Assembly: GCA_024275665.1 (NCBI GenBank)
Contig: JAJRYS010000016.1
Location: forward strand, 3,050 to 67,049
DNA length: 64,000 nt
Direction of reading: 5' to 3'
Source: an archaeon
Lineage (GTDB): Archaea > B1Sed10-29 > JAJRYS01
Part shown: piece after piece, positions 1-28,696 of the stretch
Layout: every line of letters starts with the position of its first letter
How positions within the stretch are numbered: the first letter of the stretch is position 1
Made by a program: the position numbers and the translations under genes
Notes under the pieces: generated by a model
What the model saw: only the letters and a program-made list of their open reading frames with translations
What the model was told of the DNA's origin: nothing
The model's database searches: none

Positions 1-3
1 GAA

Positions 4-216
4 GTGTTCAACGGTTCTAACTTTACGAGTGTTAACAAGAGCGTTGAGTACTGCGTTTCCCTTGAACAAGGAGAAGGAGTGTTGTTCTTGAAATATCCCT
101 CTTTCAGCAAGGATGAGGTTTGGATAAGCCCTGAAAGAGTAGTGGTAAGAGCTGAGAGCGGCAAGCACTTGTACGCTGTTACGCAAATACTCCACGAGTG
201 GATCAAACAAGCATGA
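4..216 (+). CDS. C-terminal fragment of an unknown protein; the gene starts upstream of the window
   Basis: ORF open to the window edge; no recognisable motif. Confidence 0.2.
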   Translation: MFNGSNFTSVNKSVEYCVSLEQGEGVLFLKYPSFSKDEVWISPERVVVRAESGKHLYAVTQILHEWIKQA

Positions 217-226
217 GGTTTTCTTA

Positions 227-889
227 ATGAAAGAAGTAACAGTCATAGTTCCTGCTTTCAACGAAGAAGAAAGGATTGCAAGAGTGCTTGGAAAACTGAA
301 GAAGAAAGGATTAAACACGATTGTAATAGATGATGGTTCTACTGACAAAACTGCTTTAATAGCTTCCAAGCACGCTACAGTGTTTTCTTACAAACCCAAT
401 CATGGCAAGGGCTTTGCAATGCGTTACGGAGCAAGCAAGGCCAGGACCAAGTACGTCGTGTTCTTCGAAGGAGATGACCAGTTATTCGTTGAAGACATTG
501 ACAAGATAGTTGAAAAACTCAAGCAAGGAAACGACTTGGTATGGGGCAGGAGGGACTTGTCAGTTATTCCGTGGCCTAGGAGAGTGAACAACGTCTTGAC
601 TACTCTTGCATTGTTCTTTGCTACTGGCAGGGTGATAAGAGACCCTCTCAGTGGCTTCATAGGCGCTGACAGGAAGAAGTTCCTGGCACTTGGGCTGAAG
701 GAAGACAGATTTAACATAGAATCAGAGATTCACTTCAAAGCAGTCAAGCACGGGTTGAAACAAGACACAGTGCCTATAAGAATAAAGTATCATTGTAAGA
801 AGAAGTTTTCTTTCAACAAGCTGAACTGGAAGCAAAGCGCTTTAATAATAGCTTTCTTGTTCAAACTAGTGTTGTGGCGAAGAGCATGA
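227..889 (+). CDS. Family 2 glycosyltransferase (dolichyl-phosphate sugar synthase-like)
   Basis: N-terminal VIVPAFNEEERI...IVIDDGSTDKT motif typical of the GT2 / DPM synthase fold; first gene of a co-directional overlapping operon. Confidence 0.7.
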   Translation: MKEVTVIVPAFNEEERIARVLGKLKKKGLNTIVIDDGSTDKTALIASKHATVFSYKPNHGKGFAMRYGASKARTKYVVFFEGDDQLFVEDIDKIVEKLKQGNDLVWGRRDLSVIPWPRRVNNVLTTLALFFATGRVIRDPLSGFIGADRKKFLALGLKEDRFNIESEIHFKAVKHGLKQDTVPIRIKYHCKKKFSFNKLNWKQSALIIAFLFKLVLWRRA

Positions 890-1266
890 AGCAAGTTTAC
901 TTGATAATAATAGCGTTGCTTGTGGTAAGCGTTTTCATAATGCTTGGATACCAAGTTGAGAATTATCCATTAACAAGAATGAGAATAGGCAACGTTACAA
1001 TAATGAATGATGCAACATTTTTCAGCGTTTCGATCTACTCTGAGAAAGCAAGTAATGTTACTGTTGTTGAAGAAGTGAATGGAGCAATAGTGCTTGAGAG
1101 AAGAGAAGAGTTGAATGCTTTTGAAGAAAAAACAATCTCTTTTAATGCGTCATTGCAGAAAGGAGAGAATACAGTAATGGTGATGGCTTACTACAATGAC
1201 GCTGAGTATAATGGTTATGGGTCAAAGGTTAATCCGTATTATGTTTTCTTCAAGGTGGTAGCGTGA
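874..1266 (+). CDS. Small membrane-anchored or secreted protein with several N-x-S/T sequons
   Basis: N-terminal hydrophobic helix, then NVT, NVT and NAS sequons; overlaps both neighbours by a few nt, suggesting translational coupling in the glycosylation operon. Confidence 0.4.
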   Translation: MAKSMKQVYLIIIALLVVSVFIMLGYQVENYPLTRMRIGNVTIMNDATFFSVSIYSEKASNVTVVEEVNGAIVLERREELNAFEEKTISFNASLQKGENTVMVMAYYNDAEYNGYGSKVNPYYVFFKVVA

Positions 1267-2624
1267 AAAAGCAGACAGCAGTGTTGTTGATTGCAGTTGT
1301 TTTGGCTTCGTTGTTCATCAGGCTTTATCCAGTGGTTTTGAACGATGACTTGTTGAAGTATGATTCTTATTATCACGTTAGAATAGCAGAATGGGTTAAA
1401 GAAGAGGGTACAGTCCCTATGATAGAACCTTGGCCTGTTGGAGGAAAACCCCATGTGTACCCTCCTTTGTATCACTTGCTGTTGGTGTTTTTTTCTTTCT
1501 TCATCCCGTTAATGGTTAGTATTAAACTCTTACTTCCAATCATTTCAGGATTGCTTCCATTAGCAGTGTTCTGGTTTGCGAGGAAGTACTGGAGTGAAGA
1601 GGCTTCGTTGCTTGCAGCAGCATTCGTAGCATTTAATCCTTTCTTAATCAATGCTTCTTTTGACTCCCCGCAAGCAATAAGTTTCTTGTTATTACTCCCA
1701 GTATTTTATTACGTTCTCAGAGGAAAGTATTACCTTTCTTCTGTTTTCTTGGCTTTAATGCTATTAACGAATCCGTTTTCCGGGTTCCTCTTGTCTTTGT
1801 TCTTCATTGTTTTTCTTGTTATTGAGAAAAAGGCGAGAGAACTTAACAAAGTGCTACTGCTTCCTCTTGCTGTTTTCTTAGCATGGTATGCTCCGAGAGG
1901 GGCTCTTAGTAATTTTTCAACAATGGTCGTTGGCTTCATTATCAAAGAAGTAAAGCCAGAAGCGTTCTTGAATGTGTTCTTGTTAGTACCTGCTTTCATT
2001 GTGTTGTTCTTGACAAGAGCAAGGAATTCTTTTGAAAGATTTTGGTATTTGTTTTCGTGTTTCTTCTTGTTATTGTACTTGTCAGTGTTCGTGTCACCTG
2101 CTCTGCATCCGTGGAGGCATGATGCTTTCATAATGCTAGGGGTTTCAATGCTTGCTGGAAAGCTGTTTTCAAAAGCCACTAATACTAAGAAACTATTAGC
2201 GTTGTTAGTGTTTTCTTTCTTCTTGCTAGCGCAGTTGAATGTGTTCGTTCATTCCAATGCTTTCAAGCCAATACTTTCAGAATCTGATTTTGATTCCATG
2301 AAGTACTTGAATGGTGGTGTGCTATCTGATCATGATTACTGCGCTACTGCAATCACATTGTACAACATTTCTTGTTTTACAGATGTTGCCTTTGATGTTT
2401 CCTTTGATCCTACCAGGGCTTATGAGTTTGAAGAGTTTTTCTGGGCTAGCAAGCCAAAACAAATGCAAAGAGTGATAACAGAATATTCTCCTGATGTTGT
2501 GGTGTTCGCGCGTAATGACTGGGGAGCGTTAGTATTAAATGAATTGAATGTGAATAAGACTTACGAATCATGGCAATGCATTGGTAATTTCTGTCTAAAA
2601 CCTACGAGCGTTTATGAGGTGTGA
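1263..2624 (+). CDS. STT3/AglB-like polytopic membrane protein; short paralog with a degenerate WWDYG region
   Basis: EL1-type motif D-S-Y-Y-H-V-R and YPPLYHLL shared with the downstream paralog; about 11 predicted TM helices; C-terminal SDHDY in place of WWDYG. Confidence 0.45.
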   Translation: MKKQTAVLLIAVVLASLFIRLYPVVLNDDLLKYDSYYHVRIAEWVKEEGTVPMIEPWPVGGKPHVYPPLYHLLLVFFSFFIPLMVSIKLLLPIISGLLPLAVFWFARKYWSEEASLLAAAFVAFNPFLINASFDSPQAISFLLLLPVFYYVLRGKYYLSSVFLALMLLTNPFSGFLLSLFFIVFLVIEKKARELNKVLLLPLAVFLAWYAPRGALSNFSTMVVGFIIKEVKPEAFLNVFLLVPAFIVLFLTRARNSFERFWYLFSCFFLLLYLSVFVSPALHPWRHDAFIMLGVSMLAGKLFSKATNTKKLLALLVFSFFLLAQLNVFVHSNAFKPILSESDFDSMKYLNGGVLSDHDYCATAITLYNISCFTDVAFDVSFDPTRAYEFEEFFWASKPKQMQRVITEYSPDVVVFARNDWGALVLNELNVNKTYESWQCIGNFCLKPTSVYEV

Positions 2625-4092
2625 TGATTTGAACAAGAGACTAGTGTTGCTTGCAGTGTTTTTCTTCTTACTGTTTTCAGCCCCGCAATTCTTAAGAAAT
2701 TATGTTTACGGAGGCACTATTATAGGAACTACTAGTTATTACCACGTGCGAATGGCTGAAATGATTTCAAAAAATCAGCTTTATGACCCTCTTTCTTTTG
2801 GCGGAAGATTTTACACTTACCCTCCTGGCTTCCACTTACTGCTGTCTTTCTTGCTGCCGATTAAAGACTTCTTGCTTCCTTTGTTCGGAATAGGGGGGAT
2901 TATCTTAGCTTATTATTTTGCAAGACAACTAGGATTAAGTGATGAAGAGTCTTTGTTTTCAGCAGCGTTACTCGGACTGATACCAGGATATGTTTACTTG
3001 TCAGGGCATTTGAATCCAAGACTTCCAGCAATACTGTGTTTGATTGCTTCTTATTACTTTTTGATGAGGAAAGAGCCTGAAGCAAAGTATTATGCTTCTG
3101 TCTTTTATGCATTTTCACTGATTACTCATCCTTTTGCAGCGACTGTTGGAGGCATCATGGCTTTCTTGTTGTTCTGGAGGAATAAGAAGAGAGTGCTTGT
3201 AAGCTATTCACTTTCTGCTTCCTTATTCATACTTGCTTGGTTGCTTCCGTTAGTAATGTCACACGGCCTGCCTTCAAGAGTTGATTTTTACACAGTGTAC
3301 ATTGAGTTAAAGTCAGGGATTCAGTACTTCGTATTCGAAGCAAGAGTAGTGAGTGATACTATTGGTGCTTTCACTTGGCTTATGGCGTTGTATTCTGCTT
3401 TCAAATTCAAGACAAAACAAGTTAATTTCTTAAAATTGTGGTTGTTTTTGGGAATAGTGGTTTCTCTAAGCATTGGTAACAGGCTTAATGAAATGCTTTA
3501 CTTCCCAATAGCAATGCTTGCTGCTAAGACTTTCGTAACAAGCTGGCATAAGTTTCTTGACACTCTTCACTTGACTTACTTTGTCCAAGACCTGAAGTTT
3601 TGGACTGCTTTGTTTTTCATTTACTCCTCAATCATAGGCATACTCGCAGCAGGGGCTTTACTTTATTTCCCTCCTTCCCCAGCAGAGTATCATGCAATGG
3701 AGTGGATTAAGGATAATACTCCTAAGAACGCTGTTATCATGGGCTACTGGCAGGACGGGCATTGGATCAGTGGCATTGCTGAGAGAAAGAATGTGATTGA
3801 CGCTTACGCAGAATACGGCCCTAACGTTGATGAAAGGTACCAGGACATGCTTAACGTTATGGAAGGAACAGACTTGGACAGGGCTCTTAATTCTTTAAAA
3901 AAGTACAATGTTTCTTACATTTACTATCCGTTAATAAACACAATATATTGCGATGGTTTTACTTCTCTCACCAAGTATTCTTACTTCAAGCTAGTATTCC
4001 ACGAAGACCACAAGTTCGTTTATAAAGTTGATTATTCTGGCAAGTCACAGCCATTTGACTTATGCAAGAACTACGTTAATAACACTCTTTAA
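2614..4092 (+). CDS. aglB: Short AglB/STT3-like oligosaccharyltransferase
   Basis: YYHVR loop motif, polytopic membrane core, C-terminal MGYWQDGHWI resembling the WWDYG catalytic motif, followed by YNVSYIYY. Confidence 0.55.
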   Translation: MRCDDLNKRLVLLAVFFFLLFSAPQFLRNYVYGGTIIGTTSYYHVRMAEMISKNQLYDPLSFGGRFYTYPPGFHLLLSFLLPIKDFLLPLFGIGGIILAYYFARQLGLSDEESLFSAALLGLIPGYVYLSGHLNPRLPAILCLIASYYFLMRKEPEAKYYASVFYAFSLITHPFAATVGGIMAFLLFWRNKKRVLVSYSLSASLFILAWLLPLVMSHGLPSRVDFYTVYIELKSGIQYFVFEARVVSDTIGAFTWLMALYSAFKFKTKQVNFLKLWLFLGIVVSLSIGNRLNEMLYFPIAMLAAKTFVTSWHKFLDTLHLTYFVQDLKFWTALFFIYSSIIGILAAGALLYFPPSPAEYHAMEWIKDNTPKNAVIMGYWQDGHWISGIAERKNVIDAYAEYGPNVDERYQDMLNVMEGTDLDRALNSLKKYNVSYIYYPLINTIYCDGFTSLTKYSYFKLVFHEDHKFVYKVDYSGKSQPFDLCKNYVNNTL

Positions 4093-11697: not shown

Positions 11698-12900
11698 TTA
11701 TTGCTTCTTTTTTGCTGCTTCTTTTTTTGCTTTTTCAACAAGTTTTTCCAAGTAGTCTCTGGTTTTTTGTTCTTCTATTTTTTCCGCTTCAGCGTTCCTG
11801 CTTCTTATGTAAAGCAATGCTATTACTAGTGCTATTATTATCACTGCTCCTATTAGTGTTGATCCTCCGAAGAAGGCCATTCCTGTAGGCATTCCTATTT
11901 TGTATCCTGCGAGTACTACTTGTTCTTTTGTTATCACTGAATCATCTTTGATAAGGCTTATGTTTAATGGTGTTTCTGAAAAGCTTGTTGGGATTATTGT
12001 CAGGTTTATTGTTTTAGTCTCGTATCCTTCTATTGAGAATGGTTCGTTTCCGCTTACTTCCCATCCTTCTGGAAGTCCTTCTATTTTCCATTCAACGTTG
12101 TTAAGGTCTGAGATTCCTCTGTTCTTTATCCTGAATGATAGTTCATATCCTATTATTTTTCCTGTTTCTTCTTTTACAGGCTCCCATGGCAGTAATAGTT
12201 TCATGTCAAGCCTGTCTGTTAGGGGTTCTGCTCCTTCAATGTTCAGGATGAAGTCTGCTTGTGTTATAACGTTTCCGCTTCCTGCTTTTACTGTTAGTTC
12301 ATACTCGTCTGCTGGGAAGTATATTGGCACTGTTATTCTTATTTTTAATTCTTTTACTTCATTAGGGTCTAAATCAAATGGTTCTGGGTATTTTGGATTT
12401 AACACTTCTGGTATTGTTCCTTCTATTACTATGTTTCTGAGTCTTTCGTTTCCCTCGTTTCTTATTATGAATTTGAGGTCTTGGGTTTCTCCTTGCATTA
12501 CGCTTACTTCTTCATAAACAGAAGTCAGTTTTAAAGCATCTACTCCTTCTTGCACGTTCACGGCAAGGTTTTCAACCTGTCCATTAATATTTAATTTGAT
12601 TAAGTATACTCCTTCTCCTAAGCCGTTTGTAACCCCAAACACATGGATTGTCTTGGTCTTATTTGTGTCCAAATGGAATGATGGCTCACTTATTGAAGTG
12701 TACACATCCTTAGAGTCTGCTGTTACTAGCACGTTTTGTGCTTGGTCGTAGTTTGTTATTTGGATTTCAAAGTCTGCTACTCCTCCTTTAGGCACGGTTA
12801 CGAGAGGATTCACAGTATTTATGCTCAAAGCAAGTGCTATTCCTACTAAGAGCAGTCCAGCTATTATGTTTTTTATTCCTGTCATCTTCACCACACTCAA
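11698..12900 (-). CDS. Cell-surface protein with signal peptide, CARDB/DUF11-like beta domains and a C-terminal TM anchor with a Lys-rich tail
   Basis: N-terminal signal-like helix, repeated beta-rich segments, C-terminal hydrophobic helix followed by KKEAAKKKQ. Confidence 0.5.
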   Translation of the reverse strand: MSVVKMTGIKNIIAGLLLVGIALALSINTVNPLVTVPKGGVADFEIQITNYDQAQNVLVTADSKDVYTSISEPSFHLDTNKTKTIHVFGVTNGLGEGVYLIKLNINGQVENLAVNVQEGVDALKLTSVYEEVSVMQGETQDLKFIIRNEGNERLRNIVIEGTIPEVLNPKYPEPFDLDPNEVKELKIRITVPIYFPADEYELTVKAGSGNVITQADFILNIEGAEPLTDRLDMKLLLPWEPVKEETGKIIGYELSFRIKNRGISDLNNVEWKIEGLPEGWEVSGNEPFSIEGYETKTINLTIIPTSFSETPLNISLIKDDSVITKEQVVLAGYKIGMPTGMAFFGGSTLIGAVIIIALVIALLYIRSRNAEAEKIEEQKTRDYLEKLVEKAKKEAAKKKQ

Positions 12901-13803: not shown

Positions 13804-13921
13804 GGGCCAGTAGCTTAGTCACTACGCTGGACTTTCACTTACCCTCTTTCAGCGTAGCTAAAATGGTTGGAGCACCCGACTGATAATCGGGAGGCCGAGA
13901 GTTCAAATCTCTCCTGGCCCA
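13804..13921 (+). tRNA. tRNA-Ile (anticodon GAU) with a roughly 40-nt intron at a non-canonical position in the D-arm
   Basis: Acceptor GGGCCAG/CTGGCCC plus discriminator A; intact anticodon arm CCCGA-CTGATAA-TCGGG; T-arm GAGAG-TTCAAAT-CTCTC; D-stem GCTT/GAGC interrupted by an insert that forms the helix CTACGCTG/CAGCGTAG; no encoded CCA. Confidence 0.6.
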
Positions 13922-20492: not shown

Positions 20493-21767
20493 TTATTTTT
20501 TATAAACCCATTTTTCAAGAGCTCTCCTAAGTTCTCTGTGGTCCACAGCGTATTTTTTTAAGCTGATTCCTTGCATTGTTGCTTCAAGAGCTTGCCTTGC
20601 TGCTACTGCTCCTTCTGTAGTCCCGTCAGGGTGTCCGTGGATTCCTCCTCCCATTTGTATTATAATGTCAGTGCCAAGAGTTTTTACAAGTTTTGGCACG
20701 TGTCCTGGGTGAAGTCCTCCAGAAGCCACTGGGAACACTGGTTTTATGTTCTCCCATTTCTCAGCAAGCTTGTGTTCTCCTGGTTTTATTATCATTTCTC
20801 TTATCTCTCTGTCAATGGTGGTGACTTCTTTTTTGCTTCCATGCATTTTACCGAAAATAGTTCCAATGTGTATCTGGTCAACTCCTATGAGTCTGGCGAA
20901 GTCAGCAATAGCAAGCATGCTAATGCCATGCTTCTTGTTTCTTGTCAGAGCAGCGTGCATTGCCCTATGCGCGTGGATTATCAGTCTTCCGCTGTTTTCC
21001 CTTAGAGTCTGCAAGGCAGACCATCCTGTAGTTATTATGTCAACCATCACGTACTTCCCGCCTTGCGAGCGCACGAAGTCAACGCGTTCAAGCATTTCAA
21101 TAGTTTCAGCAGTAACATTAGCCATGTAAGCTTTCCTTTCTCCTGTTTCTTCTTCTGCCTTGTCCCTTGCTTCAAGAGTCTTAATCACTCTTTCTTCGAA
21201 AGGATTGAACTTCTGGCTGGTGAGGTTTTCATCGTCTTTCACTATGTCACATCCTCCGATCCAAGCGTTGTAAGCTACTTGCGCGTGTTCTGAGGCATGA
21301 AGTCCTAGTTTTGGTTTTACAATAGTGCCAAGAAGAGGTCTTTTCTTAACACGCATTATTTTCCTGACTCCTTGAATGCCGTGTTTTGGTCCTTTGAAAC
21401 GCTTCAAAATGACTTTCGGAAAGTCGTTGTCAACAAGACGAAGGTTTTCAACTTCTTTCATTCCAAAAATATTGCCAGCTACTGAGCTCAAAATTTCAGG
21501 AACGTTGTCCATTTCGAACAACTCTGCTGGATAAGCTATTTTAACATAGTGGCCTTTTATGTCAAACACTTTGGCACTCATCTTCATTATTCTCTTTTTC
21601 ATCGTAGTGACTTCTGTCCAAGTACCAGTAGAGGATTCTGCAGCAACAGCTGCTGCTGCTTCTTTCATGCTGACTCCCTTAGCAGGTTCTACGTAGAACA
21701 AGCATATCATGTCATCTTTTCTTGGCTTGTAATTCAAGTCGATGTAATGCGCGTACGATTCCTTCAC
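20493..21767 (-). CDS. rbcL: Ribulose-1,5-bisphosphate carboxylase/oxygenase large subunit, archaeal form III
   Basis: GGCDIVKDDENL (carbamylated Lys motif), GLHASEHAQ, HAHRAMHA, GGGIHGHPDG; about 424 aa, typical of form III. Confidence 0.9.
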   Translation of the reverse strand: MKESYAHYIDLNYKPRKDDMICLFYVEPAKGVSMKEAAAAVAAESSTGTWTEVTTMKKRIMKMSAKVFDIKGHYVKIAYPAELFEMDNVPEILSSVAGNIFGMKEVENLRLVDNDFPKVILKRFKGPKHGIQGVRKIMRVKKRPLLGTIVKPKLGLHASEHAQVAYNAWIGGCDIVKDDENLTSQKFNPFEERVIKTLEARDKAEEETGERKAYMANVTAETIEMLERVDFVRSQGGKYVMVDIITTGWSALQTLRENSGRLIIHAHRAMHAALTRNKKHGISMLAIADFARLIGVDQIHIGTIFGKMHGSKKEVTTIDREIREMIIKPGEHKLAEKWENIKPVFPVASGGLHPGHVPKLVKTLGTDIIIQMGGGIHGHPDGTTEGAVAARQALEATMQGISLKKYAVDHRELRRALEKWVYKK

Positions 21768-23750: not shown

Positions 23751-24243
23751 GAAAATAGCAGAAGCAGCATTGTTCATGTCGCCAGAGCCTCTTACTGTTA
23801 ATGAAATAGTGAAAGTGACAGGAGTTGAGTCTGTACCAGTTGCTTTAAAATTAATAGAAGATTTAGTGAAAGAGTTCAACTCTAGAGATTCTGCTCTTGA
23901 AATAGTAAATGATAACGGGAAATATTTGATGAGAGTCAAGTAAGAGTACTTGAAGCACGTGTCGCACTTAGCAGTTTCCCCTGAATTCTCAAAAGCAGTA
24001 CTAAGAACGCTTGGATTGATTGCTTTGAAACAGCCGGTAAAGCAGTCAATAATAGTAAGCATAGTAGGCAACAAGGCATATGATTACGTGAACGAGCTTG
24101 TTTCAAAAGGATTTATCAAAGCGAAAAAACAGGGCAACACCAAGATATTAATGACCACTCCTAAGTTTGAGTCTTACTTCGGGAAGAAAACAAACGAGAT
24201 AAAGAAAATGAGCAAAGCTTCTTACCAAAGTACTTTACTTTGA
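23731..24243 (+). pseudogene. scpB: Segregation and condensation protein B (ScpB) interrupted by an in-frame TAA at 23941-23943
   Basis: Two same-frame ORFs (70 aa and 97 aa) correspond to ScpB winged-helix 1 (AEAALFMSPEPLTVNEI) and winged-helix 2 (LSPEFSKAVLRTLGLIALKQPVKQS...KILMTTPKF). Confidence 0.55.
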
Positions 24244-25425
24244 GTTATAATATTCTGTGATTACTTCTAACACGTCTTTGAAGCTAACCACTCCATTGGA
24301 AAGCATTTCTTCTAGAATGTTTTGTTTTTTCTTAATCTCCTTGTTAATGTCAGCCCTGCTCTTGCCGCATAGTTTTGCAAGTTCTTCAATCTTGCCGCTT
24401 GGGATGTTCGTGCTTTCCACTTTGTCAGTCTTGGCATTGTAAACAAACAACTCGCTGAAAGAAATACCAATCTCAGAACGTTGCACTTCAACTATTGAAC
24501 TCACTCTTCTTTTCAATCCTTCAGGAGACCTGATTTTTTTGCATACTATTATGAAATCCATTAAGCCAAGCATGTTCTTAGGAACGTTCATAGGAGGATT
24601 AGTCAAACGGGAAATGCACTCAGCAGGAGAATTAGCGTGAAGAGTTCCCATGGCAGAGTGCCCTACGTTCATGGCGTTGAACAAAGTCTCTGCTTCCGGC
24701 CCTCTCACCTCTCCTACTATTAGCCTGTCAGGTCTCATTCTCAAAGCATTAATGAGCAAGTCATTCATAGTAATGGCACGTGTGTTAGCAACAGCGTGCT
24801 TGCTTTCCATCCTCACGACGTTCTTTCTTCCGAAGAAATTCAATTCAAGAGTGTCTTCTATTACTACTATGCGCTCGTCTTTTGGGATGAAAGAAGTAAG
24901 AATGTTCAATAATGTCGTCTTACCAGCTCCTGCTCCTCCAATAACCAGAATGTTGAAAGGATAATTCCTCTCTCCTTCCACTGCTTCCCATAAGAAAGCA
25001 GCAGCCTCTGAAGACAATGTGCTGTTCTGAATGAGACTAACGATTGACAACGGGTTCTGCTTGAACTTCCTAATAGTAATAGTAGGACTGTTAGGAGTAG
25101 CAGGAGGAATAGTAGCGTTCAAACGAGAGCCGTCAGGCAAGCGAGCATCAAGGAAAGGCTTTTCCTCATTAATCACGTCACCTGCTTCCAAGGCAGCGTT
25201 GTTAATCCATTCTATTATCTCTCTTTCACTCATCACAAGGTTAGTTTCGCACATGCCATGCTTAGCATGATAAACAAATACAGGTTCTCCTGCTCTGTTA
25301 ACCATTATTTCTTCAAGCTCAGGGTCTTTCAAAAACTTTTCAATAGAAGGGTTCTTAACCTCATACTTGTAAAACCCTCTCTTCTTAGTAATCGTTGCCA
25401 TGCCTTTCATTACAATCCAATCCAA
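24235..25425 (-). CDS. VirB11/TadA/GspE-family secretion ATPase (type IV pilus or archaellum-type, short form)
   Basis: Walker A VIGGAGAGKTTLLN, Asp-box and His-box of secretion NTPases, about 396 aa. Confidence 0.7.
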   Translation of the reverse strand: MDWIVMKGMATITKKRGFYKYEVKNPSIEKFLKDPELEEIMVNRAGEPVFVYHAKHGMCETNLVMSEREIIEWINNAALEAGDVINEEKPFLDARLPDGSRLNATIPPATPNSPTITIRKFKQNPLSIVSLIQNSTLSSEAAAFLWEAVEGERNYPFNILVIGGAGAGKTTLLNILTSFIPKDERIVVIEDTLELNFFGRKNVVRMESKHAVANTRAITMNDLLINALRMRPDRLIVGEVRGPEAETLFNAMNVGHSAMGTLHANSPAECISRLTNPPMNVPKNMLGLMDFIIVCKKIRSPEGLKRRVSSIVEVQRSEIGISFSELFVYNAKTDKVESTNIPSGKIEELAKLCGKSRADINKEIKKKQNILEEMLSNGVVSFKDVLEVITEYYNSK

Positions 25426-25499
25426 TAAAAAGCTTTTGCAGGACTAATTGCTGAGTTTAAAGTTTTAAATATGTTGCAGGGTATAAGAAATTGATTGAA

Positions 25500-27305
25500 A
25501 TGGTTCGCAAGCCTAAGCATATTAGAATAAGTAGAGAATGGATGGAGTTACAAGCTCTTAGAGAAAGAGAGAAAGAAGAGGAGAATAAGAAAAAGATTCA
25601 AAGAGCATTGCAAGCTATTAAAAAAGCAAAAGAAATTGAGAAGCAATATTACAAGAAAAGAGGGATGGAAGAAATTGAAAAACTTCCAAGAGCGTTGCGC
25701 AGCGGCAGGAATTTGAAAAAAGTCCTTGAGCAGAAAGCAGAGCAACTGCTTGAGGAAGCCAGACGCAAGGAAGAAATGCTTGGGAAAGGAGCTTCTTTTG
25801 TTAATGCTTTCTTCGAGCCAAAAGGACCGATAGAAGTGCAAATTGGAAGACTGAAAAGGTTGAATGAAATTCTTGACAATGCTCTTAAAGAAGAAAGAGT
25901 AATGAAACAAGAGAGGAGGTTGGTTGAAAAGCACAGGAAGAAATCTTTGAGAATGATAAGTGGACTTGAAAAAGAGAATGAGAAATATTTTAAGATAATG
26001 CCAGAATTAAAAGAAAAAGTAGAAGAATTGAATAGGAAAGTGCTTACAGGAGAGATGAATCCAAGGAAAGTTGAGAAAGAACTTGAAGAAATTAGAAGGC
26101 TTCAAGAAGAAGCAAAAGAAAAAGCAGAACTAATTTTGGAAATTGATAAAAGAATTGTGAAAGCAGGAGGAGTTGGGATAAGACCCCCTGCAATAATAGG
26201 CAACAAAGATCTCACCAGACTGAATTTAGAAGAACTTAGAGGTTTGTTAGAATCTGCTGACAAGAAGATTAGGGAAAAACAGCTTGAAAAGCAACGCAAA
26301 GAAGAGGAAAGAGAGGAAAGAAGAAAACTAGCTAACAAGTTTAGAAAGTTGAAGGGGGATTATGAAAAGATCACTGGTAAAGAACCAGGCATAAGGATAA
26401 TAAGAGGGATTAGTTTAAAGGAATACAAGAGGATAGTTGAAGAGTTTGAAGCAAGAGTGGAAAAGGAAAAAGAGCTAGCTGAAGCGAGGAAAGCAAGAGA
26501 GGAGAAAATAAGGAAAATCAAAAAATTAAATGAAGAAATCAAGAAGTATGGAGGAGAGCAGTTAAAAATCACAATTCCCTCTGAGAAACTCTCACTCAAT
26601 GCTTTGGAACAAATAGAAGGAACAGCAAGGGAAAGATTGGAAGAAGCTAAAAAGATGAAAGAGAAAGAGGAAGAGATACAAAAAATAAAAGAAACTTTTG
26701 AAGAGATTAGAAAAATCGACGAGCACTTCAGAATAGGAAATCTCTTTGATGCTTCAAAACCTCTTTCAGAACAGTTGGAAATGCTAAGAAAAAAGAGAAA
26801 AGAACTGGAAGAAGAACTTAAAATACTGAAAAAAGAAAAAAGAGAAGAAATCAAGATGCTTATAAATGAAGGAAAAGTCCCGGAAATAAATGATACAGAG
26901 AGGAGTGCCAGGAGATTAGAAAAAGAGTTGTACCTTCCTGAAGAATTTTCTTTACCTGAAAACAAGAAAATGGAGAGAAGCAGGATTGAAGAAGAAGCAA
27001 TAGAAGAAAAACCAAAGGAAATTAAAAAAACAAAACAGGAAGAAAAATTAGAAATATTCAAGGCAGAGCATTCTCAAATAATAGGTGACTTGTTGTTCGG
27101 AGGAGGGAGGCTCTTTCAGGAGTTTGAAGAAATAGAAAATAGAGTAGCGAGAGGAGATATCTCTCCTAAAGAACTTGAAAAAAGATTAAAAGAATGGCTT
27201 AATAAAGTTGAAAAAAGAAAGAAGGGGAATAAGAAAAAATCAAAGAAAAAGAAATCTGGGAAGAAAGGGAAAAGAAAATCTTCAGGGAGAAAAAAGAGTT
27301 CCTAA
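25500..27305 (+). CDS. Very Lys/Glu-rich predicted coiled-coil protein (about 600 aa) with a poly-Lys C-terminal tail
   Basis: Uninterrupted 1.8-kb purine-rich ORF with heptad-like EEL/KKL periodicity; C-terminal KKGNKKKSKKKKSGKKGKRKSSGRKKSS; TATA-like TTTTAAATA about 30 nt upstream of the ATG at 25500. Confidence 0.5.
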   Translation: MVRKPKHIRISREWMELQALREREKEEENKKKIQRALQAIKKAKEIEKQYYKKRGMEEIEKLPRALRSGRNLKKVLEQKAEQLLEEARRKEEMLGKGASFVNAFFEPKGPIEVQIGRLKRLNEILDNALKEERVMKQERRLVEKHRKKSLRMISGLEKENEKYFKIMPELKEKVEELNRKVLTGEMNPRKVEKELEEIRRLQEEAKEKAELILEIDKRIVKAGGVGIRPPAIIGNKDLTRLNLEELRGLLESADKKIREKQLEKQRKEEEREERRKLANKFRKLKGDYEKITGKEPGIRIIRGISLKEYKRIVEEFEARVEKEKELAEARKAREEKIRKIKKLNEEIKKYGGEQLKITIPSEKLSLNALEQIEGTARERLEEAKKMKEKEEEIQKIKETFEEIRKIDEHFRIGNLFDASKPLSEQLEMLRKKRKELEEELKILKKEKREEIKMLINEGKVPEINDTERSARRLEKELYLPEEFSLPENKKMERSRIEEEAIEEKPKEIKKTKQEEKLEIFKAEHSQIIGDLLFGGGRLFQEFEEIENRVARGDISPKELEKRLKEWLNKVEKRKKGNKKKSKKKKSGKKGKRKSSGRKKSS

Positions 27306-27346: not shown

Positions 27347-28696
27347 ATGATAACGGCGGTGATTGTGGTGGGAGTGAGGGATTATCTTAAGAAGAAAAAA
27401 AAGTTGAAAAGAGAGACAGTAGGGATTGGTAAGATTTCTGCTGTTGGTATGAGAATGTCCAAACTTAAAGCATTAAAAACAGCAAAAGAGTTGGGCATTG
27501 ACATAAGCAAATATGGCAGGTTTGCTACTGTTACTGATATTAAAAAAGATATAACTTCTAAGATTAGAGAAAATGAGAAGAAAGTGCAAGAAGGTAAAAT
27601 GAGGAAAGCAAGAAAAATTGCTAGGGAAATGAAAGAAGAAGAGGAGTTGTTTGAAAAAATTGTGCAAAAGGCTGTTAAAGAAGGAGAAGAGAAAGTAAAA
27701 AGAAAGTATGGTGAAAGGGAAAGAGAGATAATAAGAGAAAAAGAAGAGATGGCTAAAGAATTTGAGAAAATAAAAGCAAAAGCCAAGAATGGTAAAAAAC
27801 TCACTAGGGAAGAACTTAACTTCTTCAGGAAGTATTATTCAAGAATGGCTGGAACTCCTTCTGAAAAGAAATCATTAGAAAGGAGAGTTAAGAACATAGA
27901 AAAAAGGATTAATAAGCTTATTAGTGAGGAAAAGAATAAAGGAGTTAAAGGAGATATATTTGCCCAACTCTTAAAACAAGGCAAGATAAGCGAAGAGGAA
28001 ATCAACCTGCTCAATGAGTACTATCAACAAGCTGGAGGAGCTAAGTTCATAACAAGAGTAAATGTTGCTCCTGAGTTGAAGGATATGATTTATAGTGGAA
28101 AAGCCGCGAAGATTACTGGAAGAGTACCAGAAGTTAACATTGAGGACTTTGAAATAAGAAAAGGAGAGAGAATAATATTCCATCCAATGCAACAGCCAAT
28201 GATGGCTAAATTAAAAAACCTTGTAGAGAAAAGAGACTCTCTTAAAGAAAGAAAACAAGCTCTGAAGGAGCAGATTAAGAAGTTAGAAGAGTTTGGAAGA
28301 TACTCTGACCTTGAAATTGCGAAAAAGAAATTAGATGAAGTTGAAGCAAGAATAGATGAAATGAAAGAAGAAATAAAATATTATCATAAATTAGCAGAGG
28401 AGGAAGAGAAAGAGTTTGAAAGAAGAAAAAAAGAGGAATTAAGAAAAGAAAAAGAAAAGCTTAAGAAAGAACGTGAGAAAGAGCTTCAGAGACAGGCAAT
28501 GCTTAGAAAGAAACAACAGATAAAGGAGACTAATGAAAAAATTAAGAAAATAAAGGAAGAGTTGAAAGTTCTCAGAAGCCCTAGAAAGAGAATTGAAATG
28601 AGGATCAAGGAAGGAGATATAAATCAGAGAATAAGAGAACTTGAGAATAAACTCAGAGAAGAGAAGAAGATATTAGAAGAATTACAAAAAGCATAA
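27347..28696 (+). CDS. Lys/Glu-rich predicted coiled-coil protein (449 aa)
   Basis: Long uninterrupted ORF with a short N-terminal hydrophobic segment (ITAVIVVGV) then charged helical repeats. Confidence 0.5.
   Translation: MITAVIVVGVRDYLKKKKKLKRETVGIGKISAVGMRMSKLKALKTAKELGIDISKYGRFATVTDIKKDITSKIRENEKKVQEGKMRKARKIAREMKEEEELFEKIVQKAVKEGEEKVKRKYGEREREIIREKEEMAKEFEKIKAKAKNGKKLTREELNFFRKYYSRMAGTPSEKKSLERRVKNIEKRINKLISEEKNKGVKGDIFAQLLKQGKISEEEINLLNEYYQQAGGAKFITRVNVAPELKDMIYSGKAAKITGRVPEVNIEDFEIRKGERIIFHPMQQPMMAKLKNLVEKRDSLKERKQALKEQIKKLEEFGRYSDLEIAKKKLDEVEARIDEMKEEIKYYHKLAEEEEKEFERRKKEELRKEKEKLKKEREKELQRQAMLRKKQQIKETNEKIKKIKEELKVLRSPRKRIEMRIKEGDINQRIRELENKLREEKKILEELQKA

Follow-up and report, generated by a model that had tools for sequence, protein, structure and literature searches.

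Two compact STT3-related proteins in a conserved Micrarchaeota operon beside an S-layer gene

Introduction

Near the start of the window, the whole 64-kb stretch of archaeal DNA analysed here, two adjacent genes encode membrane proteins that resemble the oligosaccharyltransferase AglB/STT3 but are far shorter. The locus raises the question of which transfer reactions such proteins could serve, and whether protein asparagine is among their acceptors. An initial annotation had described four overlapping, co-directional genes, and their lengths and quoted motifs are all found again (Table 1).

Operon organization

The open reading frames overlap in order by 16, 4 and 11 nt, and the view of them as a co-directional, translationally coupled glycosylation operon holds. 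They form the 3' end of an operon that is conserved in Micrarchaeota (DPANN archaea) and lies beside an S-layer gene. In relatives, the gene order is S-layer protein, p185, an MprF-type flippase-like protein (LPG_synthase_TM), a GT2 glycosyltransferase, a small anchored protein, a D-type STT3-like protein and a T-type STT3-like protein. This synteny with the S-layer gene covers the window and nine other loci (L001, L002 and L004-L010), where the stop codon of one gene and the start codon of the next overlap or are a few nucleotides apart. The window opens inside p185, which in relatives separates the S-layer gene from the glycosylation genes. The p185 protein of locus L001 matches this partial frame in phmmer (E 9.9e-8), another homolog lies at 653-964 of L007, and a Pfam search with p185 returns no family. 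The flippase-like gene is present in most relatives and absent from the window and from L008, and no canonical AglB lies within the 64-kb window. A D-type gene stands next to a T-type gene, tightly coupled with it, in the window and in 29 other loci (L001-L016, L021, L029, L030, L032-L039, L041 and L042).

The first complete gene had been likened to Dol-P-Man synthase, in agreement with its matches to Pfam PF00535 (E 5e-23) and to the P. furiosus Dol-P-Man synthase 5mlz, its closest solved relative (E 1.6e-8), with ArnC and GtrB next. The top NCBIfam match is AglJ (TIGR04182, 1.3e-28), but far below the family cutoff. A GT2 of this type is the most constant neighbour of the STT3-like genes, so the locus is read as a surface glycosylation module fed by dolichyl-phosphate sugar. 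Such a GT2 also adjoins T-type genes without a D-type partner (L022 and L025) and is found at Aenigmatarchaeota-like loci. With only one GT2, the operon points to a monosaccharide donor. Donors of this kind are typical of GT-C enzymes that decorate glycans or lipids, such as AglS, ArnT and GtrC, not of oligosaccharyltransferases.

Table 1. Features of the locus, numbered from the first letter of the window.
Feature	Positions	Strand	Remarks
p185, 3' end	1..216	+	gene of about 185 aa in relatives; 5' part cut by window start
GT2 polyprenyl-phosphate sugar synthase (Dol-P-Man-synthase, AglJ, GtrB, ArnC-like)	227..889	+	220 aa; Pfam, NCBIfam and PDB matches; VIDDGSTD at 323-346, EGDDQ at 467-481; C-terminal membrane helix at 836-877 (hydropathy)
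Small N-terminally anchored extracytoplasmic protein	874..1266	+	130 aa; hydropathy, orthologs; single hydrophobic segment aa 3-29, TM at about 895-951; sequons N40 (991-999), N61 (1054-1062), N91 (1144-1152); conserved C-terminal GxGSKxxPYYxFFxVxV at 1213-1260
P3, D-type compact STT3-like GT-C glycosyltransferase	1263..2624	+	453 aa
P3 EL1 motif DSYYHVR	1362..1382	+	aa 34-40; D34 aligned to catalytic EL1 Asp of STT3 (DPYFNYR), STT3A alignment
P3 EL2 motif SFDSPQ	1656..1673	+	D134 aligned to first Asp of STT3 GSYDNE
P3 SDHDYC at WWDYG position	2325..2342	+	aa 355-360; family consensus xHDxC
P4, T-type compact STT3-like GT-C protein	2614..4092	+	492 aa; YWQDGHWI aa 378-385, YNVSYIYY aa 431-438
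P4 EL1 motif TSYYHVR	2731..2751	+	aa 40-46; T40 at catalytic EL1 Asp position, STT3A alignment
P4 EL2 segment GHLNPR, where STT3 has DxE	3004..3021	+	acid absent; H132, N134, R136 clade-invariant
P4 EL5-like loop YIELKSGIQYFVFE	3298..3339	+	E231, E242 clade-invariant
P4 segment YWQDGHWISGIAERKNVID	3745..3801	+	aligned to WWDYG(Y/H)xIxxxAxRxxxxD of STT3 and AglB

Two compact relatives of STT3

Family profiles and predicted fold identify P3 and P4 as true relatives of STT3/AglB, as first proposed. The P4 family profile matches STT3A at E 2.5e-11 and AglB at 1.7e-7, and the P3 profile matches STT3A at E 2.7e-5. STT3, AglB and PglB are the first matches of both AlphaFold models. For the P4 model (AF2; pLDDT 89.6, pTM 0.87), the top 19 Foldseek matches all belong to these three (1e-13 to 3e-7, TM 0.57-0.71), with DPY19, ArnT and PMT ranking behind. 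The predicted fold is thus GT-C, and the YYHVR motif does not trace to an unrelated membrane family. In Pfam, P3 barely reaches STT3, and P4 matches PMT_2 alone (27.6 bits against a cutoff of 26.1) without reaching STT3. The two are also full-length paralogs of each other, as had been suggested, with an alignment likeness far beyond chance: hhalign of the family profiles gives a probability of 99.95% (E 5.5e-37, 425 columns), and BLASTP gives E 4e-17 across the N-terminal 200 aa.

Like AglB, STT3 and PglB (CAZy GT66), both proteins combine a GT-C membrane domain with an alpha/beta C-terminal domain, which resembles the AglB central core and spans about 120 aa in P3 and about 135 aa in P4. The short Archaeoglobus fulgidus paralogs AfAglB-S1/S2 are a known precedent for a C-terminal domain limited to the central-core unit. 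The solved full-length chains of STT3, PglB and AfAglB-L run to 700-870 residues, and STT3-type enzymes have 13 membrane helices, compared with about 11 predicted in P3 and in P4; two helices seem to have been lost between EL3 and EL5. The lengths had been called unusual, and both proteins are indeed shorter than any characterised AglB, but this size is the norm across a large, uncharacterised family: a profile search at E<=1e-30 collects 761 cluster representatives, nearly all of 440-520 aa.

Roughly complementary losses in the active-site motifs

Residue equivalences with solved oligosaccharyltransferases were drawn from sequence and profile alignments. Shared with the AglB/STT3/PglB group are the EL1 motif (D)xYYHxR followed by DxLSxGGRxxxxPP, and a conserved G-H-W...R...D past the WWDYG position. 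P3 carries the EL1 motif in its STT3-type form, DxYYHxR, with D34 invariant in 13 family members, and further on YPPLYHLL; P4 carries YPPGFHLL, and its T40 is invariant in 10 close homologs. Asp or Glu stands at the T40 position, or one residue earlier, in 120 of the 144 family representatives. In EL2, most family members have Asp or Glu at the D134 position of P3, with Gly or Asn in L008, L011 and L012; the third position is an invariant Pro in place of Asp, Glu or His. An EL5 Glu is not conserved in P3. Neither a DK nor an MI motif was recognised in P3 or P4.

The sequon-reading motif WWDYG is absent as such from P3, P4 and 120 of the 144 representatives; it corresponds to xHDxC in P3 and xWxxGHW in P4. 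The most conserved stretch of the family's C-terminal domain is this same region. P3 retains the Asp of WWD but neither Trp nor the Gly, in a register set by hhalign of P3 with P4 and of P4 with STT3; direct alignment is non-significant and gives the same register. The earlier equation of MGYWQDGHWI in P4 with WWDYG(H/Y)WI agrees with the alignments to STT3 and AglB. P4 has Gln at the Asp position, and its G382, R391, K392 and D396 show little or no variation family-wide. Its EL5-like loop, like EL5 of STT3, is disordered, with a model pLDDT <50 at residues 234-245, and the WQNIP motif that the broad family has there aligns with NNIP of STT3A EL5. The clade-invariant polar residues of P4 in EL2, this loop and the WWDYG-equivalent segment argue for a working site.

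The initial annotation had taken P3 for the degenerate copy. This is rejected: P3 keeps D34, D134 and the WWD Asp, where P4 has T40, GHLNPR and Gln. With YWQDGHW, P4 bears the closer likeness to WWDYG, but the EL1 and EL2 acids are lost in it. Judged from these motifs, both proteins are degenerate, in roughly complementary ways. Asn-directed activity of P3 is plausible on the same grounds. The description of the pair as minimal oligosaccharyltransferases stands for STT3 homology and for length; their oligosaccharyltransferase activity is putative. WWDYG is unconserved, and in L017 a canonical STT3 of 1026 aa lies at a distance of about 10 kb from a distant T-like member, P0020. The family need not be the organism's oligosaccharyltransferase.

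The small protein and the acceptor

Pfam and PDB searches with the 130-aa protein return no match. Its membrane anchor and three sequons, which had made it a candidate substrate, are confirmed, and its sequon density of 23 per 1000 aa, from three sites only, is the highest among 69 crude window genes (mean 3.5). The substrate role is disfavoured. Sequon positions are not kept among orthologs, with one sequon in each L005 ortholog. Orthologs lie directly upstream of every P3-type gene in six loci (L001, L004, L005, L008, L009 and L010), and in L005 the small protein is duplicated along with the P3-type gene. It is a conserved operon partner of that gene. A more natural substrate is the S-layer protein, whose gene lies just upstream in relatives and which has 9-16 sequons per 1000 aa there, compared with 3.5 across window genes.

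Proposed role and alternatives

From homology, predicted fold, motif states, gene order and family size we derive a model to which we give about an even chance: GT2-fed glycosylation of the S-layer or surface by two compact STT3-superfamily enzymes with distinct roles. By its homology to Dol-P-Man synthase, AglJ, GtrB and ArnC, the GT2 would load a sugar onto dolichyl phosphate at the cytoplasmic side of the membrane. The lipid-linked sugar would then be flipped, with the relatives' flippase-like gene as a candidate; this genome would need another gene. Outside the membrane, P3 and P4 would transfer the sugar onto S-layer or other surface proteins. With its EL1/EL2 carboxylates and WWD Asp, P3 would be the likelier protein (Asn)-directed transferase, possibly with the small membrane protein as accessory. 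P4, whose site appears re-wired (T40, H132/R136, E231/E242, N289-R290/E293, WxxGHW), would most likely perform a second, distinct transfer step. Counted against the model were the missing WWDYG, the lack of a conserved EL5 Glu in P3 and the EL1/EL2 acids absent from P4, as well as the single GT2 and the proximity of P0020 to a canonical STT3.

A cultured Micrarchaeon, Ca. Micrarchaeum harzensis A_DKE, offers a parallel: its S-layer protein is a PAS-positive glycoprotein, and four gene numbers separate its slp, Micr_00292, from Micr_00288, which is annotated as an oligosaccharyltransferase with TIGR04154 at E 9.5e-23 (Gfrerer et al., bioRxiv 10.1101/2021.04.28.441871). This spacing matches the S-layer to STT3-like synteny of the locus. 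Micr_00288, known by annotation, gene number and E-value, may by its position be orthologous to P3 or P4; paired, compact or motif-deficient paralogs are not described in that paper.

It is possible, if rather doubtful, that neither protein glycosylates Asn and that both are Dol-P-monosaccharide-dependent GT-C enzymes on an STT3-like scaffold, decorating glycan, Ser/Thr or lipid. Three-component polyprenyl-phosphate-monosaccharide modules of this kind include GtrB/GtrA/GtrC, ArnC/ArnEF/ArnT and Haloferax AglD/AglR/AglS, whose third component would be the counterpart. The operon logic of GT2 synthase, flippase-like protein (in most relatives) and GT-C is shared, all in one operon beside a surface-structure gene, and the unconserved WWD motif and the family member beside a canonical long STT3 fit as well. 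Pfam assigns PMT_2 rather than STT3 to P4 and to 22 of 58 family representatives, and C-terminal DUF2334/polysaccharide-deacetylase fusions in some P3-type and P4-type proteins recall amino-sugar pathways, for example ArnD. Unlike these modules, however, the locus has a pair of paralogous GT-Cs, adds a small anchored protein and, like L008, lacks the flippase-like gene. Its GT-Cs are of STT3 type, not GT39, GT83 or GtrC type: profile and fold comparisons consistently rank STT3/AglB/PglB first, with matches that include the oligosaccharyltransferase-specific central-core domain, conservation in that domain peaks exactly at the WWDYG-equivalent region, and the EL1 of P3 is of STT3 type.

Rather than two enzymes with distinct roles, P3 and P4 might form an obligate heteromer, perhaps together with the small protein, in which the D-type supplies the catalytic carboxylates and the T-type serves as a GT-C scaffold, binding acceptor or lipid without catalysis. 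An inactive partner in a dimer of the Pmt1-Pmt2 kind, or PIGU, would be a precedent for such a subunit. This is improbable, even with the complementary motif losses, the tight gene coupling in many loci and the recurrence of the D/T dichotomy in distantly related Aenigmatarchaeota-like pairs. Pmt1-Pmt2 and EmbA-EmbB, precedents for paired GT-C paralogs, and PIGU/GAB1 of the GPI transamidase, pseudoenzymes with a GT-C fold and no transferase chemistry, are all structural neighbours of the models, but belong to other GT-C subfamilies. Against a heteromer, L022, L025 and L028 have a T-type gene and a GT2 but no D-type gene next to the T-type, the T-type is rich in invariant polar residues within the loops that make up the active site in STT3, and that site lies within one protomer, so trans complementation would need a domain swap.

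The original reading, of two minimal oligosaccharyltransferases with P3 possibly non-catalytic for want of WWDYG and the 130-aa protein as dedicated substrate, is very unlikely: STT3 homology, the alignment of YWQDGHW in P4 with WWDYGH and the high sequon density favour it, but the acids are kept in P3 and lost in P4, the small protein has shifting sequons and behaves as a partner, and the S-layer gene upstream in relatives provides an evident surface substrate.

Gene Organization of the Locus

Near its start the stretch carries four co-directional, overlapping genes, which encode a GT2 glycosyltransferase, a small membrane-anchored protein, and two compact STT3-like GT-C paralogs, P3 (D-type) and P4 (T-type). 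In related loci (L001, L002, L004-L010), the order runs from an S-layer gene (PF05124) through p185, a conserved gene of about 185 aa, and an LPG_synthase_TM gene (PF03706) to the GT2, small-protein, P3-type and P4-type genes. The window, whose start cuts p185, keeps this order minus LPG_synthase_TM. In the window and all these relatives, convergent TruD and aRF1 genes come after the P4-type gene, and the operon junctions are mostly overlaps or gaps of a few nucleotides.

Coordinates of the features discussed (window positions unless a locus is named)
Feature	Location	Strand	Description
GT2	227-889	+	220 aa
Small anchored protein	874-1266	+	130 aa; 16-nt overlap with GT2
P3	1263-2624	+	453 aa; 4-nt overlap with the small-protein gene
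P4	2614-4092	+	492 aa; 11-nt overlap with P3
NPCBM_assoc/NEW3 protein	11698-12900	-	400 aa; 7.5 sequons per 1000 aa
tRNA-Ile(GAU)-like gene	13804-13921	+	Rfam covers only model positions 7 to 64
5' acceptor strand of this gene	13804-13810		GGGCCAG
RuBisCO large-subunit homolog	20493-21767	-	424 aa; both Pfam domains
T2SSE-family ATPase	24235-25425	-	secretion/pilus ATPase
Lys/Glu/Arg-rich protein	25491-27305	+	604 aa
Lys/Glu/Arg-rich protein	27347-28696	+	449 aa
Purine skew	26-28 kb		GC skew 0.435, AT skew 0.418
DUF2334 fusion	L001 7422-9494		C-terminal domain
Three STT3-like genes	L005/L006 4121-9328		one Micrarchaeota lineage
LPG_synthase_TM	L007 952-1830		compared with the p185-GT2 gap of the window
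Long STT3	L017 21393-21479 onward		ENA ERZ27280223, 797-kb contig; PF02516 plus PpiC-type rotamase domains
Tandem distant family members	L019 2-1441 and 1509-2918		479-aa protein without EL1 acid (LWSVYYERQ), then P0019 (GVDAYYHFR)

The LPG_synthase_TM gene (E 1.2e-17) occupies the gap between p185 and GT2 in L001, L002, L004-L007, L009 and L010. L008 and the window have no such gene there; in the window, the GT2 start follows the p185 stop after just 10 nt, and a phmmer search of the whole 64 kb turns up no homolog. Its product is flippase-like and may act as the flippase of a three-component module of synthase, flippase and GT-C transferase, which most relatives would encode in full; the window has no such putative flippase gene.

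The genes flanking the glycosylation genes are archaeal, namely TruD, aRF1, UMP kinase and Dph2, and beyond Dph2 lie MetRS, an XPD-type helicase, a RuBisCO large-subunit homolog, the thermosome and CTP synthase, with two further class I/II aminoacyl-tRNA synthetases also among them. GC content is about 38%. The nearest related loci are annotated as Candidatus Micrarchaeota, and Aenigmatarchaeota appear among the more distant ones. In the cultured Candidatus Micrarchaeum harzensis, where STT3-like genes have already been noted, Micr_00292, the S-layer protein, is a glycoprotein positive for PAS; Micr_00288, one of two OST-annotated genes, stands four gene numbers away (bioRxiv 10.1101/2021.04.28.441871).

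The GT2 Enzyme and the Small Protein

GT2 matches PF00535 (E 5e-23), and its nearest solved relatives are the Pyrococcus Dol-P-Man synthase (5mlz, 1.6e-8), ArnC (9hwj, 8e-6) and GtrB (5ekp, 4e-5). Because it also carries VIDDGSTD and EGDDQ motifs of the DxD type and a C-terminal hydrophobic helix (aa 202-220), a predicted membrane anchor on a GT-A domain, it is assigned as a polyprenyl-phosphate sugar synthase. Against the NCBIfam AglJ equivalog model (TIGR04182), it scores 100.3 bits, short of the cutoff of 325; judged by sequence, it is AglJ-like, yet no AglJ equivalog. A Dol-P-Man-synthase-like GT2 recurs in most loci examined.

The small protein has a single, N-terminal membrane segment, and neither Pfam nor PDB offers a relative at any useful E-value. 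The initial annotation had proposed it as a substrate marked by its sequons. This role is rejected, as its orthologs carry one to four sequons each at positions that are not conserved. L005 holds a second module of small-protein and P3-type genes, so in its behaviour the small protein is a partner to the P3-type enzyme. One idea is that it might supply in trans the peripheral unit that is missing relative to AglB.

The L005/L006 arrangement comprises small-protein, P3-type and P4-type genes, followed by the convergent second small-protein and P3-type module, which is joined to the GT2, LPG_synthase_TM, p185 and S-layer genes. The 64-kb window holds no third STT3-like gene.

P3 and P4 as Compact STT3 Relatives

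Profile and structural comparisons establish that P3 and P4 are STT3 relatives, as first proposed from the sequence. In the Pfam search suggested at that time, P3 barely passes the STT3 model (PF02516; 25.7 bits, gathering cutoff 24.5), and P4 has no STT3 match, passing only PMT_2 (27.6 bits, cutoff 26.1). Beyond this, P4 shows a sub-threshold AglB_core-like match at residues 375-409 (E 0.018). A profile of P4 homologs matches STT3A (2.5e-11), AfAglB-L (1.7e-7) and yeast Stt3 (4e-6), with alignments that span the membrane region at the N-terminus as well as the WWDYG region; the P3-family profile matches STT3A at 2.7e-5. Aligned with each other by hhalign, the two family profiles give a probability of 99.95% (E 5.5e-37, 425 columns), which marks P3 and P4 as full-length paralogs.

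AlphaFold models both proteins with good confidence (P4, pLDDT 89.6 and pTM 0.87; P3, pLDDT 79.7 and pTM 0.80). The predicted fold is GT-C, with OST catalytic subunits as the closest structural relatives: each of the top 19 Foldseek matches of the P4 model is STT3, AglB or PglB, with DPY19, ArnT and PMT ranking below them. A C-terminal extracytoplasmic domain with a central-core unit is also found. Judging from a Kyte-Doolittle scan and from DSSP of the models, the membrane helices seem to number about 11, against 13 in OST, and a single helix, in place of three, would lie between EL3 and EL5.

In canonical enzymes, the WWDYG motif serves to read the Ser/Thr at +2 of the sequon, and the Asp of external loop 1 (EL1), in a DPYFNYR-type motif, is catalytic. 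The register of these sites in P3 and P4 was set by chained sequence and profile alignments among P3, P4, STT3 and AglB, which are mutually consistent, and every motif quoted in the initial annotation lies at the position given there.

Motif states of P3 and P4 at the sites of canonical STT3
Site	Canonical STT3	P3	P4
EL1	DPYFNYR	D34-SYYHVR, D34 invariant	T40-SYYHVR, T40 clade-invariant
EL2	GSYDNE	SFD134SPQ	GHLNPR (H132, N134, R136 invariant)
EL5	Glu of SVSE/TIxE	no conserved acid	E231 and E242, both invariant in the clade; loop disordered
Arg after EL5 (P3/P4 correspondence only, not placed on STT3)		R285 (HPWR)	R290 (GNRxNE)
WWDYG site	WWDYG	DHDYC (family xHDxC)	YWQDG, then HW

D34 of P3 aligns with the EL1 Asp of STT3A, which P4 lacks. 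In EL2, P3 keeps the first Asp and has an invariant Pro at the third position, and P4 has no acid; the second acidic motif (DxD/DxE/DxH) is missing from both, and the broad family reads TNxxSxY. Neither protein has a WWDYG motif: P3 retains just its Asp, and P4 the second Trp and the Gly, with Gln for Asp. The family motif WQNIP aligns with NNIP just ahead of SVSE in STT3A in an uncertain register, and in the sequence alignments no DxxK/MxxI is recognisable at the place expected downstream of YNVSYIYY. With these motif states, both proteins are non-canonical. P3 had been singled out as the degenerate paralog; instead, it keeps the carboxylates that the WWDYG-like P4 has lost. Because neither the WWDYG motif nor the second EL2 motif was found, P3 and P4 are filed as GT-C members of the STT3/AglB superfamily and not as bona fide AglB.

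A Large Family with Two Subtypes

The P4-family profile, run with HMMER against the full set of 1.84 billion cluster representatives (50% identity), returned 11,055 matches at E<=1e-3, 2,430 at <=1e-10 and 761 at <=1e-30. Nearly all of the best 150 of the 11,055 are full-length proteins of 440-520 aa, so the short length, at first thought unusual, is the family norm. The broad-family profile matches STT3A (4.8e-13), AglB (1.7e-10) and AfAglB-S2's C-terminal domain (1.6e-7). Among 58 representatives, Pfam labels 22 as PMT_2 and one as STT3, and the others carry DUF6541, DUF6798 or no label. With most members unannotated or labelled PMT_2, surveys of DPANN N-glycosylation probably misclassify the family.

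Two subtypes emerge from 144 representatives. The EL1 acid occurs with xxEEGH(L)I and no Trp in 120; the remaining 24 lack the acid, and 15 of these form a clean T-type subfamily with the motifs IG(T/F)(T/P)TYxHxR, SH(L/I)(S/N)xR and DWxxGHWI. Loss of the EL1 acid correlates almost perfectly with the presence of both Trp residues, and the EL2 DxD is absent from both subtypes. Residues D58, S61, G64, R65, P71, P124, G382, R391, K392 and D396 vary little or not at all.

A DUF2334/polysaccharide-deacetylase domain is fused at the extracytoplasmic C-terminus of one P4-type protein and of some P3-type ones (a gene in L001 and the homologs P0013, P0033, P0034, P0036 and P0037), a hint that the sugar passed on is N-acetylated and loses its acetyl group outside the cell.

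Distant members occur in other settings. After the tandem pair in L019 come a GT2, a CDP-alcohol phosphatidyltransferase and a DedA-like protein with a VTT domain. In L017, the short member P0020, which has Gln at the EL1 site, belongs to a surface-glycan island with an S-layer gene, a deacetylase-GT2-TPR fusion, a PMT_2 GT-C, UbiA and PAP2. A canonical 1026-aa STT3 stands about 10 kb from P0020. Its fusion of STT3 to a rotamase is in itself unusual.

Pairing of D-Type and T-Type Genes

In every Micrarchaeota locus, the D-type gene lies directly upstream of the T-type gene. The Aenigmatarchaeota-like loci L013-L016 contain paralog pairs that are transcribed divergently; in L013 and L015, where the motifs were read, the pair again splits into D and T. 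A metagenome scan with the T-type alignment revealed further D/T pairs in L021, L029, L030, L032-L039, L041 and L042. In L022, L025 and L028, the T-type gene has no D-type gene within 2.7-4 kb upstream, which rules out a universal rule that T-type always stands beside D-type; pairing is therefore frequent, not obligatory. Directly upstream of the T-type gene in L022 and L025 is a divergent Dol-P-Man-synthase-like GT2.

Functional Interpretation

The reading we favour, at about an even chance of being right, is a Dol-P-sugar-fed operon for S-layer or surface glycosylation with two compact STT3-superfamily transferases, in which P3 would be the likelier Asn-directed enzyme, assisted by the small protein, and P4 a second, re-wired one. 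Donor, acceptor, catalytic competence and any complex at the locus are what we infer.

A somewhat unlikely alternative is that both enzymes decorate glycans, Ser/Thr or lipids, in the manner of AglS, ArnT and GtrC; it has to be weighed with the PMT_2 labels on one side and the OST-first structural ranking on the other. Two further readings join the paralogs physically, and both are improbable. P3 and P4 could be an obligate heteromer in which the T-type subunit is non-catalytic, a view that meets frequent pairing together with unpaired T-type genes. With comparably small probability, P3, P4 and the small protein could form a split multi-subunit OST, the only enzyme for N-glycosylation in these reduced genomes, in which the catalytic carboxylates would sit on P3 and the Trp-containing, acceptor-reading motif on P4, on separate polypeptides. 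Such an enzyme would be a minimal prokaryotic counterpart of the multi-subunit OST. The initial proposal of two minimal OSTs, the first possibly non-catalytic, with the 130-aa protein as substrate, correctly recognised the STT3 kinship and is very improbable given the carboxylates of P3 and the shifting sequons.

The fixed linkage to the S-layer gene offers a concrete candidate for the pathway by which Micrarchaeota glycosylate their S-layer, and within it a candidate flippase, a component listed as unknown by Krause et al. Literature searches returned no description of the compact family, its D/T subtypes, their pairing or the S-layer-gene linkage, nor of short paired STT3 paralogs in DPANN or a link between PF03706 and glycosyltransferases. 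Should P3 or P4 be active as a protein glycosyltransferase, its size would lie far below that of the solved full-length OST chains, and it would work at about 450-490 aa with about 11 helices, a central-core domain only and no canonical WWDYG. This would bear on which OST parts are essential and make the family attractive for structural work and glycoengineering. The D/T dichotomy, recurring in two DPANN lineages, is a natural experiment: with catalytic acids on one paralog and the Trp motif on the other, the role of each motif can be tested directly.

Other Features in the Window

ARAGORN reports no tRNA in the 64 kb and so misses the tRNA-Ile(GAU)-like gene, whose 5' acceptor strand pairs perfectly with the 3' strand CTGGCCC. 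About 43-45 nt lie between acceptor strand and D-arm, with GTAGCT at both junctions, and the gene looks as if it carries a non-canonical intron near the junction from position 7/8 to the D-arm. Non-canonical introns of this kind occur in some archaeal tRNAs. RuBisCO genes in DPANN archaea, such as the homolog found here, are usually of the nucleotide-salvage (form III-like) type. The two tandem Lys/Glu/Arg-rich genes, whose products are extremely rich in these residues and coiled-coil-like, account for the strong local purine skew. The NPCBM_assoc/NEW3 protein, a possible surface protein, and the T2SSE-family ATPase may represent further cell-surface genes.
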